64,000 bases of DNA, from sequence record MH560358. One strand, 5' to 3'. This stretch comes from Escherichia virus KFS-EC. A model generated the notes under the pieces. It was not told the DNA's origin. It did not search any database and saw only the letters and a list, made by a program, of their open reading frames with translations. Shown in pieces: positions 17 through 60,531 of the stretch (positions are counted from its first letter, which is position 1; each line of letters opens with the position of its first letter). A program made the translations under genes and the position numbers.

Positions 17-2566
17 ATGTGGAGTAATACCGCAAACTATTTCGATGACCCGACCGCACGAAATCTTGATAAATTTGGGGCATTTCGTACTAATGATATG
101 GATGGTCATCTAGCACTTGCTTTGCATATTCCCCATCCTAGCGGTATAAATCATGCTCGTGGGTTTGATTTTACTTATGGTTCTAACGTTGTTCCTACTG
201 TAAAAACCTATGGTTATAACGCTGATGGTGTATTGGCATATTCATATCGCATGTATCACGAAGGTGATAAGCCTAGTCCGTCAGAATTAAATGTATACAG
301 CAAACAAGAAGTAGACCGGATGTTCCAGAAGACCATCAACTTTGGTGTAGAAACTGGATGGTTTAAAATTGCTACCGCCTTTATTCCGCAAAATGATGGA
401 CGTAGCTTGAAAATTAGATTGATTGGTGGAAGTGGGTGGAACGTAGGACAAACTGGACAATGTAATATTATTGAACTTGTTATAAGGACTAGCAACGGTT
501 CGCCTAAAGGAATTAACTTTGTTGCGTATCATCATGTTTCTGGTTACGAAAATCAATTTTGTGCCATTAATACAGGTGATGACACTTATGATATCTATGC
601 ATATTACTTCGAATTTACTAATATGGTAATGGCTGAATATCAAGCGTCCAGCGGTGTTAATTTAACTGTACTTGATCGACCTGAATATGTCGGCGAAAAA
701 CCTGTAGCTGATCATATCTATGATGCATATACAATATACTCCTTTAACAGTTTCAGTAACCGTGGAACGTTAAATTTTGCTGGAAACCCTCAAGGCCAAT
801 ATGACATTGAGCATTTGAACGTGCAACAAACTAACAGCAAAAAGATGTTGCGTCGCTTCCGTAGTTCTGGTCCTGCCACTATCTGGCATGAGACAGTTGA
901 TGATAACCAGTATCGTCTTGCTACTGGATACGAAGATACAAATCAGGAATTATTGCTGACAGCAACATCCGGGTTACATGTCAAGAAATTAACATTGGAT
1001 GGCGGTGTCACTGGAAATTCTGGTATTGATATTCGTCGAGGACCAAACGAATCAAGCCATTTTAATTTCATGGATTATCGCACTGGACAAGATGTTCGTA
1101 ATGGTTGGTTTGGTTTTGGTGATGGAACAACCAAAGATTTTATTTGGTGGAACGATAACGGTCAAAACTCTATAAACCTGATTGAAGACGGTGAATTACA
1201 TATTACTGGCGGTAGAGGCCAGAAAATTGTAATGAATAGCGAAGTTGCATTATCTGAAAATGCTCGTTTGGCTGTTAAAGGTGGCAATTATGGCTTAATT
1301 TTTAGAAATGATGGCGTTGGCTTCCATATTCTTACCACAGATCTCGGTGATTCATTTGGACCGTGGAATACTCGTAGACCATTCAGCTATGATTTTGCGG
1401 ACGGTGGATTGTATTTAGGTGGTACTGCAACCGCTCGTTGTTTGCATCTGGGAATTGATGGTAGCACTCGTCTCGAAGACAACCTTTTCTTTAAAGCTGG
1501 TTCTCGTCAATCTATGGACTATATGGAACTAGTCCATTGGGGGGCAAGCAATACAGGTCGAAATAACGTTTTAAGTCTTCGTGACTCAAAAGGATTTTTC
1601 GCAGAATTTGAACGATTGGGTGATGATACCATTAAAAACACCTTCTTCGGGAAACTTAAAGTTAATCGTGGTTCTGACGCAATCGTCATGAATGCCGAAA
1701 CGGGTGATTCGTCTATATATTTGCTGGGTACTTGTGCTGATAATAACAACTGGTATATCGGTAAAGGTGGTGCTGATAATGGATTAGCGTTCTATAGCTA
1801 TGCTACTAATGCTGCTATCAATATTACAAACGCTGGTGATATCGCGCTAAGTCCAAAAGGTGTCGAAATGACTCATGTCAATAACGTTCGATTCTATGTT
1901 CATGGTGAACGTTGGACTGCTAGCCAATCTGGAGGCTGGGGCGATCAATGGGGATTAGAAGCGCCGATATTTGTCGATCATGGTTATGTTGGACCAGATA
2001 GCTATTATCCAATTATTAAAGGAAGAAGTTTAATCACCAATCAAGGGTATACAACTGCCGTCGATTTTGGTCTTCGTCGTGTTCCTCAAAATTGGGGGCA
2101 AGCTATTATTCGTGTTGGATCTGCGGATGCATCGCCAGCGGCTGGTCATCCTCAAGCTGTATTCGAGTTCCATCATGATGGTACTTTCTATTCTCCTGGT
2201 AATGGTAACTTTAACGATGTTTATATTCGTTCCGATGGTCGTCTGAAAATTAATGTTGAAGATTACGAAGAAAATGCGGTGGATAAGGTAAATAAACTCA
2301 AAGTTAAAACCTACGATAAAGTTAAATCTCTTAATGACCGAGAAGTTATAGGTCATGAGATTGGTATTATCGCACAGGATTTACAAGAGGTATTACCGGA
2401 AGCTGTTAAAACCGCAAAAATTGGTGGTCTTGATAACCCAGAAGAAATTTTAACAATTTCAAACTCCGCAGTGAACGCGCTTTTAATTAAAGCGGTCCAA
2501 GAAATGAGCGAAGAAAATAAACTTCTTCGTGAACGTCTTGCTGCAATTGAAGCTAAATTAGGGTAA
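17..2566 (+). CDS. tail fiber protein, 3' portion (gp37-like long tail fiber distal subunit) with C-terminal intramolecular chaperone domain; 5' end lies outside the window
   Basis: 849-aa ORF open to window start; last ~130 aa (DKVKSLNDREVIGHEIGIIAQDLQEV... then coiled coil) fit the tail-fiber/endosialidase intramolecular chaperone pattern; sits just upstream of holin t as gene 37/38 does in T4. Confidence 0.6.
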   Translation: MWSNTANYFDDPTARNLDKFGAFRTNDMDGHLALALHIPHPSGINHARGFDFTYGSNVVPTVKTYGYNADGVLAYSYRMYHEGDKPSPSELNVYSKQEVDRMFQKTINFGVETGWFKIATAFIPQNDGRSLKIRLIGGSGWNVGQTGQCNIIELVIRTSNGSPKGINFVAYHHVSGYENQFCAINTGDDTYDIYAYYFEFTNMVMAEYQASSGVNLTVLDRPEYVGEKPVADHIYDAYTIYSFNSFSNRGTLNFAGNPQGQYDIEHLNVQQTNSKKMLRRFRSSGPATIWHETVDDNQYRLATGYEDTNQELLLTATSGLHVKKLTLDGGVTGNSGIDIRRGPNESSHFNFMDYRTGQDVRNGWFGFGDGTTKDFIWWNDNGQNSINLIEDGELHITGGRGQKIVMNSEVALSENARLAVKGGNYGLIFRNDGVGFHILTTDLGDSFGPWNTRRPFSYDFADGGLYLGGTATARCLHLGIDGSTRLEDNLFFKAGSRQSMDYMELVHWGASNTGRNNVLSLRDSKGFFAEFERLGDDTIKNTFFGKLKVNRGSDAIVMNAETGDSSIYLLGTCADNNNWYIGKGGADNGLAFYSYATNAAINITNAGDIALSPKGVEMTHVNNVRFYVHGERWTASQSGGWGDQWGLEAPIFVDHGYVGPDSYYPIIKGRSLITNQGYTTAVDFGLRRVPQNWGQAIIRVGSADASPAAGHPQAVFEFHHDGTFYSPGNGNFNDVYIRSDGRLKINVEDYEENAVDKVNKLKVKTYDKVKSLNDREVIGHEIGIIAQDLQEVLPEAVKTAKIGGLDNPEEILTISNSAVNALLIKAVQEMSEENKLLRERLAAIEAKLG

Positions 2567-2573
2567 TTGGAAA

Positions 2574-2591
2574 GCGGGGAGAAATCTCCGC
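2574..2591 (+). other. stem-loop (GNRA-type loop) just after tail fiber stop; no T-tract
   Basis: gcggggagaaatctccgc forms a 7-bp stem with GAAA loop 8 nt after the stop codon; not followed by a U-run, so probably an RNA stability/processing structure rather than a terminator. Confidence 0.3.
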
Positions 2592-2604
2592 TAAGGATTC
2601 TTAT

Positions 2605-2928
2605 ATGGGATATTGGGTAAGTAGTGAAATTAATACTAAAATCGATGCTTTAAAATGGCATGTATTTGATATTCCTAACGGCTATGGTACTGCTCGTGCT
2701 GGTGTCGCTGTAATGCGTCATAATGCTGGTGGTGGGTGGTCTGATGCACATATTAACGTAGATGGTTTGACCGTTGCTCGTCGTCGTGGTGGGACCAATT
2801 GGGGATCTACTATAAATTCGTTTGTTCCTGCTGGCTGCACCGTCTCCTTTGGTTTAGGGGGTGAAGGTGGTGACTCAGAATTGCTTTTGCATGGCTTTTG
2901 TGTGTCTGGAAGTCATAAGGGGTCATGA
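2605..2928 (+). CDS. hypothetical protein, Gly-rich, in the position gene 38 occupies in T-even phages
   Basis: 107-aa ORF with AAGGA 8 nt upstream of ATG; co-directional with tail fiber gene. Confidence 0.4.
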   Translation: MGYWVSSEINTKIDALKWHVFDIPNGYGTARAGVAVMRHNAGGGWSDAHINVDGLTVARRRGGTNWGSTINSFVPAGCTVSFGLGGEGGDSELLLHGFCVSGSHKGS

Positions 2929-3087
2929 TTGGGGACAGATCCATTCTTGTATTGTGCCGCAGGGAGTAACGATCACGGTAACTACAAACAGGGGTATTTC
3001 CCATCTTCGTTATAGACGCTTGAGCAACCGTTAAAAAAAGAATTAAGGAAAACTCCCAGGGAAGGGAACTACTAAGGAGAAACGGCT

Positions 3088-3306
3088 ATGGTCTATAATA
3101 TCGTCATTGGTGCTTTGTCTAATTTCGGAATGAAACTATTGTCAAAGTTAATTAGTGAAAAGATGCTCACTAAAATTTTCTTCTATTGCGCTCGTCGTCT
3201 TGCGGCTTATACCAATACGCCAATTGATGATCGTTTTGTGGAAGAACTTTATAAGGAGTTTAATAAAGATCAGTCAGAAGATAGCAACGAGCAAAATAAA
3301 AAATAG
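3088..3306 (+). CDS. hypothetical small protein
   Basis: 72-aa ORF with strong RBS (AAGGAG, 7 nt spacing). Confidence 0.45.
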   Translation: MVYNIVIGALSNFGMKLLSKLISEKMLTKIFFYCARRLAAYTNTPIDDRFVEELYKEFNKDQSEDSNEQNKK

Positions 3307-3361
3307 TGATAGTCAAGTACCTAAATAAGAGTACACTGTCATAGTTATCTTAGGGCATTAT

Positions 3362-4018
3362 ATGCAAGTTTCTGAAAAAGGGAAAGACTTTTCTATCTCA
3401 AATGTCCTGCGCGCTATTTTCACAACTAAAAGCACGGAGTTGCTCGTACTTCGTGTTTTTGCTGCCGTCGTGTTGTCCATATTAGCATTTGTCGTTTATA
3501 GTAAAAACGAGTTATTTGCGCTTTATAAAGAGACTCGTTATGAGACTTATGCTCACGTTCTCCAGGTAGAGAAAGACCGCAATTTTGATAATGCAGCACA
3601 GGAGCAGTTACAGATAGTTCATGTGTCGGCTGATGCCGATTTTTCTGCTGTTTTTAGTTTTCGTCCGAAAAACCTAAACTATTTTGTTGATTTGGTGGCA
3701 TATGAAGGAAAGTTACCGCATACAATCGATGAAAAAAATTTAGGCGGATTCCCTATCAATAAAACGAGTGAAGAATATCGTAGGCATCTTTTAGGTAAAT
3801 CCTATTTTACCGATAAAGATTTCCAGTATATTCCATCAAGAGAAAAGAAATTAGAGAGTATCGATATAGGGGTTATGTATTCTTGTCCTATATTCAATCT
3901 CGACAATGTCTATTCTGGTAGTATCTCCATTGCATGGAAGAATAAACCGGATATTGACATTGAGAATTTAGATACTCTTTGCAATCAATCTGCCAGAATC
4001 CTCGGAAGGATTAGATAA
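3362..4018 (+). CDS. t: holin (T4 t-type, class III holin)
   Basis: 218 aa, same length as T4 T; single N-proximal TM segment; extended identity to T4 holin (EQLQIVHVSADADFSAVFSFRPKNLNYFVDLVAYEGKLP, SCPIFNLDNVYSGSI, ARILGR). Confidence 0.92.
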   Translation: MQVSEKGKDFSISNVLRAIFTTKSTELLVLRVFAAVVLSILAFVVYSKNELFALYKETRYETYAHVLQVEKDRNFDNAAQEQLQIVHVSADADFSAVFSFRPKNLNYFVDLVAYEGKLPHTIDEKNLGGFPINKTSEEYRRHLLGKSYFTDKDFQYIPSREKKLESIDIGVMYSCPIFNLDNVYSGSISIAWKNKPDIDIENLDTLCNQSARILGRIR

Positions 4019-4024
4019 CTTAAA

Positions 4025-4056
4025 GGGGAAGCCTTTCGGCCTCCCCTTCTTTTTAT
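4025..4056. terminator. bidirectional rho-independent terminator between convergent late (plus) and early (minus) units
   Basis: ggggaagcc-tttc-ggcctcccc hairpin followed by ttctttttatt; sits between holin stop (4018) and end of minus-strand ORF (4053). Confidence 0.65.
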
Positions 4057-4301
4057 TGGCGCATAGAAGCCCCTGAATCACATTTTGACGCTGTATGATG
4101 AAAACAGGTAGCGTACCAGTCATCGGCTTGTTTGTCTTCGTCAGAAAACGCGTAATTGCGTTGTATGCCGTTTTCTACTTTGACCAGTGCAATAGCTGTT
4201 TCTGGAAGATCAATCAATCGGACAAAATCACCATCTTCCCACTCTACACGAGCAATATCATAGCCCATCTCAAAGTATACAATCGCTTGTTCTAATTTCA
4301 T
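4053..4301 (-). CDS. hypothetical protein (82 aa)
   Basis: ORF in track; start overlaps stop of upstream gene (4298); last gene of minus-strand unit before terminator. Confidence 0.5.
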   Translation of the reverse strand: MKLEQAIVYFEMGYDIARVEWEDGDFVRLIDLPETAIALVKVENGIQRNYAFSDEDKQADDWYATCFHHTASKCDSGASMRQ

Positions 4302-4627
4302 TCTGGAAACTTCCCGTAAACATTCTCTGCCAGCTTACGTGCATCTTTTACAATATCTTTCATATAATGACTATAATTTTTAGCTAGATCAATGATGCAA
4401 TCAACAAAGAAGTAATAGCGTCGCAGTGCTACCAGCTCAACATCTTCAAGATGACCATTTTCTCCAATCGCTGAAATATGTTTAAATTCCTTTCGGATCG
4501 CGTCCATCGCTACATTAACTTCTTTTATAATATCTTTCGTATTATATGCACCTCGACTAATCAAAATTTTGGTTAGGTCTTCTGCTTTTTCGTGAAAGTT
4601 GTCAATTTCAAACTCGATCATAATCAC
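4298..4627 (-). CDS. hypothetical protein, paralog of 4736..5068
   Basis: 109-aa ORF; C-terminal ...KDIVKDARKLAENVYGKF resembles ...TKIVDEARIMTENIFGKF of the neighbouring gene. Confidence 0.5.
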   Translation of the reverse strand: MIMIEFEIDNFHEKAEDLTKILISRGAYNTKDIIKEVNVAMDAIRKEFKHISAIGENGHLEDVELVALRRYYFFVDCIIDLAKNYSHYMKDIVKDARKLAENVYGKFPE

Positions 4628-4735
4628 CTCTCATAATTTCACGCTGTTGTTTCAACATTTTTTCGTGGTTTGCTAATTCTATACCTTGTAATAGCATAAC
4701 CAGTGCAATTTTCAATGATTCATCATCTTTCATAA

Positions 4736-55140: not shown

Positions 55141-55381
55141 AGTTTACCCACTCAACAAGGTCTTTACCTAACTCGAAAGCCCATTCTCGGTCCTGCTTTA
55201 CGTTTTGTAGGTATGGACTTTCCGACACTCGACGAAGTGATCTTGTCGTAACAAGAATGATCCCAGGAATGTTCGGATGTTCCTTTCCATATACAATAGG
55301 ACGCGAGTCACTATCAATACCCTGTAAGAAGGTGTATCCCGAATCACTTAGGATCATATACATTTTCATTTCATCCATCAC
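55040..55381 (-). CDS. hypothetical protein
   Basis: 113-aa ORF. Confidence 0.45.
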   Translation of the reverse strand: MMDEMKMYMILSDSGYTFLQGIDSDSRPIVYGKEHPNIPGIILVTTRSLRRVSESPYLQNVKQDREWAFELGKDLVEWVNCEDENQRNHERKIARISQRRKLDEIKNRILQSM

Positions 55382-55638
55382 AGTTTCCTCAACCAGTTAT
55401 TAAAGCGAGTAAACCATGATGCTTTTCGTGCTTCTTCTTCGGCTTTGCACGCACGCAAACCACTGAAACACCATTCATAATCATCACTGAAACATGATTC
55501 AACAGGAACACCCGCATTTCGTAGTTCTCTGGTCGTTATCATGAATCCTTGACATAATGGGCGACCTTCAACAATGATAGGAAGTTTAACTTTTTCCATG
55601 AAAGTATACCCAGCACGGTCAATAATTTCAATCTTCAT
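55378..55638 (-). CDS. hypothetical small protein, MKIEIID family member 1
   Basis: 86 aa; MKIEIIDRAGYTFMEKVKLPIIVEGR...; paralog of 55657..55854 and 57973..58194. Confidence 0.5.
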   Translation of the reverse strand: MKIEIIDRAGYTFMEKVKLPIIVEGRPLCQGFMITTRELRNAGVPVESCFSDDYEWCFSGLRACKAEEEARKASWFTRFNNWLRKL

Positions 55639-55656
55639 AATATAATCCTCAATTAG

Positions 55657-55854
55657 TTATACCGCCCAGGCTTCATTTGCACGAAAACACCATTCATACT
55701 CAGGAAAATAACCTTTAATTGGTACGCCAGCTTTTTGTAGTTCCTGCGTTTCTACAAGATAATCAAGCCCATATCGACGACCTTCCACGATGATAGGAAG
55801 TTTAACGCCATTCATGAAAGAAAATCCACCATCATCAATAATTTCAATTTTCAT
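55657..55854 (-). CDS. hypothetical small protein, MKIEIID family member 2
   Basis: 65 aa; MKIEIIDDGGFSFMNGVKLPIIVEGR... Confidence 0.5.
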   Translation of the reverse strand: MKIEIIDDGGFSFMNGVKLPIIVEGRRYGLDYLVETQELQKAGVPIKGYFPEYEWCFRANEAWAV

Positions 55855-56748: not shown

Positions 56749-57039
56749 TCAAATTGTAGTTTTGCGAAGATGGTCATTACATGCTTTTAATGCATCGGTC
56801 GCGGTGTCATAGCGAGTATTATCATAGCACCAATAACCATCTGTCAACTGATAAATTAATCCATCCTTTTTAGCTTCGATGAAAGACAATTCTTTGAAAG
56901 TTTCTACTTTCTTTGCTGATACTCCACGGTCACGGCGCTTATAGAGTTTAGCCAAAATGCGTTCAGCTTGTTCCTCTTTATCACCAGACAGATCCCAGAT
57001 GATGTTTCGGATATGCTTGATTAATTGTTCAGTGGTCAT
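56749..57039 (-). CDS. hypothetical protein
   Basis: 96-aa ORF downstream of promoter 57069..57096. Confidence 0.45.
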   Translation of the reverse strand: MTTEQLIKHIRNIIWDLSGDKEEQAERILAKLYKRRDRGVSAKKVETFKELSFIEAKKDGLIYQLTDGYWCYDNTRYDTATDALKACNDHLRKTTI

Positions 57040-57068
57040 CTTTGATTCTCCTTAGTTGGTATGCGTGC

Positions 57069-57096
57069 ATTATAGCATTGTGATTATCTTTGTCAA
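57069..57096 (-). promoter_or_regulatory. early sigma70-type promoter
   Basis: minus strand TTGACA-16-TATAAT, followed by leader ...AACTAAGGAGAATC and ATG 57039. Confidence 0.55.
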
Positions 57097-57097
57097 C

Positions 57098-57133
57098 ACC
57101 CAAAAACAAAAAAGGCTACCCCGAAGGATAGCC
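57098..57133 (-). terminator. rho-independent terminator after the gp38-like gene
   Basis: minus strand GGCUAUCC-uucg-GGGUAGCC hairpin followed by UUUUUUGUUUUUG. Confidence 0.55.
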
Positions 57134-57140
57134 CATAAAA

Positions 57141-57917
57141 TTACACGCGAGCACCGTAGATCGTGCCTACTTTATCCCAGCGTGGAGCATTACCAGTAAC
57201 GGCTTTACCAGCAGCACCACCGTTATATTCTGTACCGTTACCCTGAGTATTACATCTTCCTCCAGCAGCACCAACGTTACCGCCCGCACCGCCTGTATAT
57301 GCACTAAGAGACCCCTTACCAACAGATCCTTTACCCGGAGCGGAAATGGAGCCAGCGGTTGCACCAGAACCCATATTAGAGGAAGACCCGGCAGCACCGA
57401 ATGGGCAACCACCGCCGCCACCAAATACTAGTCGACCCCTGTTACCGCCGCCACCGCCGCCACCGCCGCCAGCGATAGCACCGTTATTTGTAATTCGTAG
57501 ACGTGTACCGATAGCGTTATTGATTGCGTTTCCACCAGCAGCGCCAGCAGCGTTACTACCACCATTACCCCCACGTCCGTAGACAGTCACACCGGAGTTA
57601 ATGATCAATGTTACATATTCGTTTGTTAACGAGCTAGGGAAGTCAAGACAAGGAACGCCAGTAGATTGGGAAACAATATTACCTGTGATAGTAATTACTA
57701 CCGGAGTAGATCCTTGTGCTTTCATCCAGTTAATAAGAGTGTCTTTATTGTAAGAGTTACTAGCACCAATGCTATAATGAATCTCTTTAGAGCGTCCGAC
57801 CATTGCCGACATATACGCCGGACGACCTAAGCGTACAGCTTGCATTGCGGCGCTCATCCACCGTTGACCAGTCTCGGACACAGCAGATGATCCTACCCAT
57901 CCAGAAGATATTGCCAT
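57141..57917 (-). CDS. glycine-rich gp38-type tail-fiber adhesin-like protein
   Basis: 258 aa; N-terminus GWVGSSAVSETGQRWMS...GRSKEI resembles the gp37-binding region of T2-type gp38 as recalled; then YGRGGNGGSN..GAAGGN, NNGAIAGGGGGGGGG and further Gly-rich blocks separated by short variable segments; GAGGA RBS. Confidence 0.6.
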   Translation of the reverse strand: MAISSGWVGSSAVSETGQRWMSAAMQAVRLGRPAYMSAMVGRSKEIHYSIGASNSYNKDTLINWMKAQGSTPVVITITGNIVSQSTGVPCLDFPSSLTNEYVTLIINSGVTVYGRGGNGGSNAAGAAGGNAINNAIGTRLRITNNGAIAGGGGGGGGGNRGRLVFGGGGGCPFGAAGSSSNMGSGATAGSISAPGKGSVGKGSLSAYTGGAGGNVGAAGGRCNTQGNGTEYNGGAAGKAVTGNAPRWDKVGTIYGARV

Positions 57918-57972
57918 AAAATTTCCTCATAAGAAAAGCCCCAATTAAGGGGGCATTGATTGATAATATTAC

Positions 57973-58194
57973 TTAGATGACCTCTGCTTCACCATCCAGG
58001 AAGAAAGACCATGTTTTGTTAGGATAGCGAAGCGCCCATGATTCAGCAGTTTTAACACCCGCTTCGAACAATTGACGGCTGGTTACTTTAGCCATACCAT
58101 CTTCGATGGCAACGTTTTCAATAATCATCGGGTACTTAGCGCCACGCATGAAACCGAAACCAGCGGAAGATTTGATAATTTTAACAGTTGCCAT
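57973..58194 (-). CDS. hypothetical small protein, MKIEIID family member 3
   Basis: 73 aa; MATVKIIKSSAGFGFMRGAKYPMIIEN...; followed by hairpin GCCCC..GGGGC + U-run (57933..57960). Confidence 0.45.
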   Translation of the reverse strand: MATVKIIKSSAGFGFMRGAKYPMIIENVAIEDGMAKVTSRQLFEAGVKTAESWALRYPNKTWSFFLDGEAEVI

Positions 58195-58234: not shown

Positions 58235-58264
58235 TATTATGCAATAACACCGGATCGCTGTCAA
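58235..58264 (-). promoter_or_regulatory. early sigma70-type promoter
   Basis: minus strand TTGACA-18-ATAATA with conserved leader and GGAGAATC RBS. Confidence 0.5.
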
Positions 58265-60463: not shown

Positions 60464-60531
60464 AAGTCATTCCCCCAGATTTAAAATATTCAGTTATATT
60501 TATAATCTGGGGCTTTATTTATGATTAACTC

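Follow-up and report, generated by a model that had tools for sequence, protein, structure and literature searches.

Gene 38 of the Krischvirus KFS-EC: a gp38-type adhesin gene carried in an early-region cassette, 54.6 kb from a mosaic fiber gene

Gene 38 encodes a full-length gp38 adhesin

We analysed a 64,000-nucleotide stretch of Escherichia virus KFS-EC (sequence record MH560358), referred to here as the window; all positions are those of the window unless stated otherwise. The span from 57098 to 57972 contains one long ATG-to-stop open reading frame of 258 amino acids. It is gene 38, encoding the long-tail-fiber adhesin gp38 (57141..57917 on the minus strand, stop codon included), as defined by the reading frame and its profile matches. 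A Shine-Dalgarno sequence, GAGGAAA (57922..57928, minus strand), is separated from the ATG by 4 nt. Around gene 38, on the same strand, are small ORFs of unknown function, located between dam/endonuclease VII/nrdD and rI/tk/regB; nrdC was not identified among the neighbours of gene 38 in the window. The ORF directly upstream (57973..58194, minus strand) is the homologue of RB49 ORF080c and belongs to phrog_7345, a small-protein family with three paralogues in this region, all on the minus strand (55378-55638, 55657-55854 and the ORF just named). The presumed partner of gp38 is the product of g37, the long tail fiber's distal subunit, which occupies 17..2566 on the plus strand with its 5' end outside the window and matches Pfam Peptidase_S74 and Gp34_trimer as well as PHROG 1699. 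Gene 38 usually follows g37 immediately, but here the g37 stop codon and gene 38 are 54.6 kb apart, in agreement with an initial annotation, made from the sequence by eye, that placed the gene on the early strand about 55 kb from g37.

In that annotation the product is read as an adhesin of the gp38 type, in which a gp37-binding N-terminal domain precedes glycine-rich motifs, and profile and structure searches are proposed as checks. Both support the assignment. Pfam GP38 (PF05268) matches with E=5.1e-71, far beyond chance, covering model positions 1-218 of 218, and Gp38_N (PF21721), the gp37-attachment domain, matches with E=3.9e-18, covering 1-40 of 40; the motif GWVGSSAVSETGQRWM is kept. 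A Pfam scan to E=1 returned nothing beyond these two adhesin-type families and no homology to T4 gp38 or lambda Tfa. PHROG 2056 ('tail fiber protein; host specificity') matches with E=1e-97, and gp38 of Salmonella phage S16 (PDB 6F45_D) with E=1.1e-48 over residues 1-256. A 30-sequence alignment gave an AlphaFold2 model with a pLDDT of 93.1. The sole significant structural neighbours of the model in Foldseek were 6F45_D, the best match (E=4e-22, TM 0.79/0.82), and gp38 of PP01 (9v85, E=4e-20). A beta-helix domain joined to a polyglycine-II sandwich is borne out by profile, model and Foldseek. Glycine makes up 23% of the protein and 33% from residue 111 onward, with runs of nine (residues 150-158) and five (166-170), and in the C-terminal half of the alignment the invariant columns are mostly glycine, with variable stretches between them. 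The dN/dS of gene 38 relative to RB49 is 0.14, and the gene is under purifying selection. The ORF is a full-length gp38 adhesin of the T2/T6/S16 type.

Gene 38 is at the locus shared by RB49-like phages

The window is from a Krischvirus, an RB49-like phage. The 5 kb around gene 38 shares 98.7% identity with ELT3 and about 97% with RB49, Phi1, Whisky and JSE. Gene 38 is annotated at exactly the same place in RB49, Phi1, JSE, ECD7, GEC-3S and many others, and at least 42 related genome records carry it at this locus; in the RB49-like relatives the same small ORFs surround it, downstream of tk, rI and rI.-1. The initial annotation named a gene carried routinely here by related phages, with a documented role other than that of an adhesin, as evidence that would speak against its reading. 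Related phages do carry it routinely, but the documented role is that of an adhesin.

KFS-EC gp38 is 99.2% identical to that of ELT3 and 98% identical to that of RB49. RB49 host-range mutants carry E230K and Y231S in gp38 (Golomidova et al. 2022, PMC9569957), and both E230 and Y231 are retained in KFS-EC. The targets given for RB49 gp38 in the literature are OmpA and certain O-antigens, OmpA being the receptor assigned to RB49 in a recent preprint (bioRxiv 10.64898/2026.04.02.716166). By analogy with this 98%-identical protein, KFS-EC gp38 would be located at the tip of the fiber in the virion and would determine which receptor is used. The earlier suggestion that a glycine-rich fold had been reused for another purpose does not fit so close a relative of a protein with mapped host-range mutations and an assigned receptor.

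Several records carry only 'tail assembly', 'assembly catalyst' or hypothetical proteins at the gene 38 locus. The records of RB49, JSE and GEC-3S name the product 'distal long tail fiber assembly catalyst', and T2-type gp38 also helps gp37 assembly, both of which could be taken to mean that gp38 is mainly a tail-fiber assembly catalyst or chaperone and not an adhesin. However, 'assembly catalyst' is the product name of T4 gene 38, an assembly chaperone, whereas the protein described here matches Pfam adhesin families only, has the S16 adhesin fold and has an RB49 counterpart to which host range was genetically mapped. We find a primarily catalytic role very unlikely. For host-range prediction, the search for gp38 should extend over the whole genome and not be confined to the surroundings of g37.

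Gene 38 occupies a present/absent cassette next to a PeSL-type element

BLAST junctions, an alignment of the junctions and the distribution among records define a 909-bp cassette at 57064..57972 that is either present or absent. In kvi and MIZ4, in which the junctions were mapped, 37 bp stand in place of the cassette, and the flanks are 96-97.5% identical. The upstream junction coincides with the stop codon of the phrog_7345 member that precedes gene 38 (57973..58194). The downstream junction falls within the early promoter of the next gene (56749..57039), a sigma-70 promoter at 57069..57096 on the minus strand consisting of TTGACA, a 16-nt spacer and TATAAT, with TG, and with 12 of 12 hexamer matches. 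Between gene 38 and this promoter is a terminator (57113..57134, minus strand) with a 9-bp stem, a TTCG loop and a T-run (-14.7 kcal/mol). Promoter and terminator together (57096-57069 and 57134-57113) form a PeSL-type element on the downstream side of gene 38; the upstream side has a G/C hairpin and no promoter. The content of the cassette is hence a hairpin, a Shine-Dalgarno sequence, g38 and a terminator, and it abuts a strong early promoter. The empty allele of kvi and MIZ4 reads TTGACA-CGGGGAGAAATCCCCG-TATAAT, with the stem-loop in the promoter spacer, which constitutes one intact PeSL.

PeSLs (promoter-early stem-loops) were proposed as the substrate on which modules are shuffled and mini-circles form in RB49 and phi1 (Arbiol 2010, PMC2839356); gene 38 is not mentioned in that paper. 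Because a PeSL element is present, we regard the hairpins around gene 38 as the standard insulation of the hyperplastic region. The initial annotation had described hairpin terminators bracketing the gene, and they are indeed found, at 57954-57938 and 57134-57113. The GEC-3S record likewise has terminators annotated on either side of its gene 38.

Transcription of gene 38 probably depends on attenuated read-through

The upstream hairpin (57938..57954, minus strand), between the preceding ORF and gene 38, is a terminator-like attenuator, GCCCC-CTTAATT-GGGGC followed by TTTTCTT, with five G-C pairs and a 7-nt loop. Its folding energy is about -9 to -11 kcal/mol, with z=-0.8 against shuffled sequence. 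The hairpin is probably leaky, since its fold is no stronger than that of shuffled sequence. From the stop codon of the upstream gene to the gene 38 ATG we found neither a sigma-70-like site nor, with one mismatch allowed, the T4-type late promoter motif TATAAATA, which confirms the earlier remark that the gene lacks a promoter of its own; a search for the late motif on the gene 38 strand from the ATG to 58607, at the same tolerance, gave no match either. The nearest upstream sigma-70-like promoter on this strand (58236..58264, minus strand; 11 of 12 hexamer matches) serves the preceding ORF, and GEC-3S annotates an equivalent of it. The canonical gene 38 of MIZ4 is also preceded by a G5/C5 hairpin; its sole late-like motif abuts the start codon, leaving it with no usable promoter of its own.

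The only exact copy of TATAAATA in the window is at 60497..60504 on the minus strand, 33 nt before rI and 2.6 kb upstream of gene 38. TATAAATA serves as a late promoter in Krischviruses: between 100 and 150 kb of RB49, four of four exact copies precede the start of a gene on their own strand by 29-44 bp (uvsW, 51, 31 and 34). One copy in the whole window compares with 5.8 expected, and at least one copy occurred in 100 of 100 shuffles; this depletion fits selection against spurious late promoters in the early region. The rI late promoter is within the left half of an inverted repeat, CCCCAGATT...AATCTGGGG (60464-60512, minus strand; -22.9 kcal/mol, z=-6.2), the right arm of which overlaps the rI ribosome-binding site. 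A transcript starting just after the promoter cannot form the hairpin. T4 e, soc and gene 49 are similarly arranged and are translated from late transcripts only.

Being without a promoter of its own, gene 38 is probably transcribed by attenuated read-through. The transcripts would most likely come from the early promoter at 58264-58236 and pass the weak upstream hairpin. The rI late promoter at 60504 could be a further source, but two terminator-like hairpins separate this sole late motif from gene 38, which counts against the late route. Attenuated read-through would suit gp38, because six copies per virion suffice. Searching the literature for transcript or virion data on Krischvirus gave nothing relevant.

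The canonical slot after g37 holds a decayed remnant

The window has one gp38 locus, and the canonical slot after g37 is without gp38. Instead, the slot (2605..3034, plus strand) holds a decayed remnant of a cluster of three small paralogous ORFs, in which ORF1 and ORF3 of the cluster found in G37-3 and G2248 are fused by a deletion at a 16-bp overlap, followed by a frameshift. The intact cluster, with ORFs of about 100 aa each, occurs in 3 of 50,697 phage records, G37-3, G2248 and UPWr_E1; it is located at 2895-3801 of the G37-3 sequence (L008) and 3771-4677 of the G2248 sequence (L009). The family has no match in Pfam, PHROG or PDB and may represent uncharacterised adhesins or accessory proteins of the fiber tip. 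The idea that the three ORFs are mini-adhesins with the gp38 N-terminal motif was rejected (hhalign probability 0.4%).

Nine related records lack gene 38 at the early-region locus, namely kvi, MIZ4, MIZ5, FL15, FL20, G2248, G5211, G37-3 and FL04. Among those examined, the canonical slot (g37 to dc5/t) holds a T6-like gp38 in kvi and MIZ4 and the three small paralogous ORFs in G37-3 and G2248. In FL15, FL20, G5211 and FL04 an adhesin gene is near the holin, according to annotations and Lutz et al. 2025 (PMC12032242). G37-3 and G2248 have gp38 at neither known site, and neither these two nor UPWr_E1 is among the best 60 gp38 matches.

Among the Krischvirus records listed, each has one gp38 locus, and the canonical and displaced sites look mutually exclusive in the examples examined; therefore gene 38 is no spare, contrary to the 'orphan' or 'spare' module first proposed. 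It is true that gene 38 stands apart from the fiber operon and that alternative receptor-binding proteins exist in some phages. Against a second receptor-binding module kept beside a primary adhesin, the window has one gp38 locus and the canonical slot of KFS-EC is empty of gp38. Of the four phages examined that are without gene 38 at the early locus, kvi and MIZ4 have a gp38 in their slot, and G37-3 and G2248 have the three-ORF cluster. We regard a spare module as very unlikely.

A T6-type fiber tip is paired with an RB49-type gp38

The C terminus of KFS-EC gp37 carries a Peptidase_S74 chaperone domain (E=4e-14; about 2216 to 2566). The initial annotation took a g37 ending in an intramolecular chaperone as a sign that gp38 is normally not needed. 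This argument is wrong, because the gp37 proteins of T6, RB49, MIZ4 and S16, which use gp38, all carry the domain; among the phages compared, it is found in gp37 of T6, RB49 and MIZ4, all of which have a gp38 adhesin. The gp37 chaperone cleaves itself, and a gp38 monomer attaches once the chaperone is removed (Golomidova et al. 2022, PMC9569957). Having both the chaperone and gp38 is normal. In KFS-EC, the C-terminal chaperone of trimeric gp37 would first cleave itself off, the conserved N-terminal domain of gp38 would then dock on the gp37 tip, and the glycine-rich C-terminal sandwich would offer its hypervariable loops to the host surface.

KFS-EC gp37 is 83% identical to that of MIZ4 and 39% to that of RB49. 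The tip, taken as the 140 residues before the motif DVYIRSD, shares 94% identity with MIZ4, 79% with T6 and 36% with RB49. From DVYIRSD on, the chaperone and the next 300 bp are of the G37-3 type, with 93% nucleotide identity. When the S16 gp37 construct in 6F45 was included in the attempt to classify tip types, only its chaperone region aligned with KFS-EC gp37. The recombination junction within g37 (2212-2216, plus strand) is exactly at DVYIRSD, the conserved cleavage motif of the chaperone. A T6/MIZ4-type tip joined to a G37-3-type chaperone, as a whole arrangement, is absent from the phage collection, in which no record covers more than 80% of positions 1500-4100 of the window (the g37-to-t region). 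In public assemblies, exact-sequence searches for gp38 and for the remnant ORF gave no match. The window may be a chimeric assembly, but the junction falls exactly at DVYIRSD and the decay pattern downstream looks biological.

Gene t of the backbone is 48% identical to T6, whereas MIZ4 gp38 is 88.5% identical to T6 gp38; for this reason the T6-type distal fiber module looks horizontally imported into Krischvirus. KFS-EC thus pairs a T6-type gp37 tip with an RB49-type gp38, a pairing not found in the other phages examined. In MIZ4 and kvi, the two phages with such a tip that we examined, it goes with a T6-type gp38 N terminus, 49% identical to KFS-EC over the first 100 residues.

In kvi, gp38 (2609-3388 of the kvi sequence, L004) is itself chimeric. 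Its N-terminal 100 residues are of the T6 type, and its C-terminal receptor-binding part is of the RB49 type, 80% identical to KFS-EC, with identical stretches that include NRGRLVFGGGGG and SLSAYTGGAGGNVGAAGGRCNT. This suggests an exchange between the adhesin genes of the canonical and displaced sites.

Could gp38 be a legacy protein, mismatched to the imported tip, with the host recognised by something else? The pairing has no precedent among the phages examined, no record covers more than 80% of the g37-to-t region, T6-type tips are accompanied by T6-type gp38 N termini in MIZ4 and kvi, and the protein carries R171C at a nearly invariant position. On the other hand, gene 38 is intact, with five amino-acid changes from RB49 and the low dN/dS given above, and beside g37 the sole alternative is a remnant marked by a deletion and a frameshift. 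In T6, MIZ4 and kvi, T6-type tips depend on gp38. An N-terminal region of the RB49 type in gp38 already occurs with two unrelated tips, that of RB49 and that of the Pu-Krd-SF3/310Ecol104PP type (83-84% identity), and the extreme N-terminal motif GW(V/I)G(S/E)S..(S/N)ETGQRWM is common to all types. We find a mismatched legacy protein unlikely. A functional pairing is instead assumed here, as the N-terminal region is found with two tips, the motif is shared and an intact gene 38 contrasts with a decayed slot.

Taken together, we consider it very probable that this gene is the Krischvirus (RB49-like) gene 38, encoding the monomeric adhesin at the end of each long tail fiber, which it caps, and carried as an early-region cassette, most likely expressed by read-through. 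Family membership, fold, conservation of the locus, cassette junctions, lack of an own promoter and purifying selection were established in this analysis. The literature supplies the role as an adhesin, the receptor and the sequence of events in which the chaperone is cleaved and gp38 attaches, while the transcription route and the working of this gp38 on the T6-type tip are inferred. Residue 171 of gp38 (57405-57407, minus strand), in the motif GGGGG(R)PFG, is Cys in KFS-EC and Arg in RB49. Arg171 is nearly invariant (at least 90%) in the 30-sequence alignment, and its substitution by Cys counts against this explanation.

To a further proposal we would give an even chance: that a gp38 encoded 55 kb away serves an imported T6-type tip whose neighbouring slot has decayed, and that g38 alternates between two sites as a cassette bounded by PeSLs. 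If true, it would show by a natural example that differing tip types are tolerated in gp38 docking, and g38 would alternate between sites within the genus, as opposed to a single ancestral displacement as in the 2026 preprint. A working pair of T6-type tip and RB49-type gp38 would also support mix-and-match fiber engineering.

Comparison with known systems

The displaced gene 38 is already known, its distance of about 55 kb included. The displacement is reported by Trojet 2011 (PMC3157838), and as relayed there it has been on record since the RB49 genome work (Desplats 2002). The 2026 preprint (bioRxiv 10.64898/2026.04.02.716166) places gp38 'approximately 55 kb downstream of gp37' and suggests that the displacement was fixed once, in the ancestor of the genus. 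Lutz et al. 2025 (PMC12032242) describe gp38 away from the holin in Krischvirus FL37 and FL38 and near it in FL04, FL15 and FL20. As a discovery, the displaced gene therefore matters little, being long reported and having an adhesin role with experimental support. The modest additions of this analysis are the junctions of the cassette, the within-genus polymorphism and the mosaic pairing of gp37 and gp38. Since the gp38 site is polymorphic within the genus, the statement that the gene was displaced in the common ancestor is refined.

The PeSL cassettes of RB49 and phi1 (PMC2839356) resemble the gene 38 cassette in several respects. Both are in a hyperplastic region, both have a GC-rich stem-loop by a near-perfect sigma-70 promoter, and both show present/absent polymorphism with junctions in the elements. 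Unlike those cassettes, the one described here carries a virion structural gene and not an ORFan, and its upstream element is a hairpin only.

T4 gp38 has only the gene number and the fiber context in common with KFS-EC gp38. The T4 product is a tail-fiber assembly chaperone and no adhesin and is not known to be related in sequence. The T6/T2-type gp38 proteins of T6, MIZ4 and kvi belong to the same Pfam families and have the same layout of glycine-rich motifs and hypervariable segments, with N-terminal 100 residues 47-49% identical to KFS-EC, but their genes are directly after g37. S16 gp38 shares the three-part architecture, with 41% identity aligned over the full length (6F45 chain D), whereas the hypervariable loops and the receptor differ. 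In S16, gene 38 adjoins g37.

The closest known system is RB49, in which gene 38 (AY343333 45367-46143, AAL15128) has the same locus, neighbours, length and flanking hairpins; the orthologues of Phi1, JSE, ECD7 and ELT3 share the locus as well. The RB49 and KFS-EC proteins differ at 5 of 258 residues (K4S, A5S, R171C, G176A and E201K). The main difference is in the partner, as gp37 is of the T6/MIZ4 type in KFS-EC and of the RB49 type in RB49.
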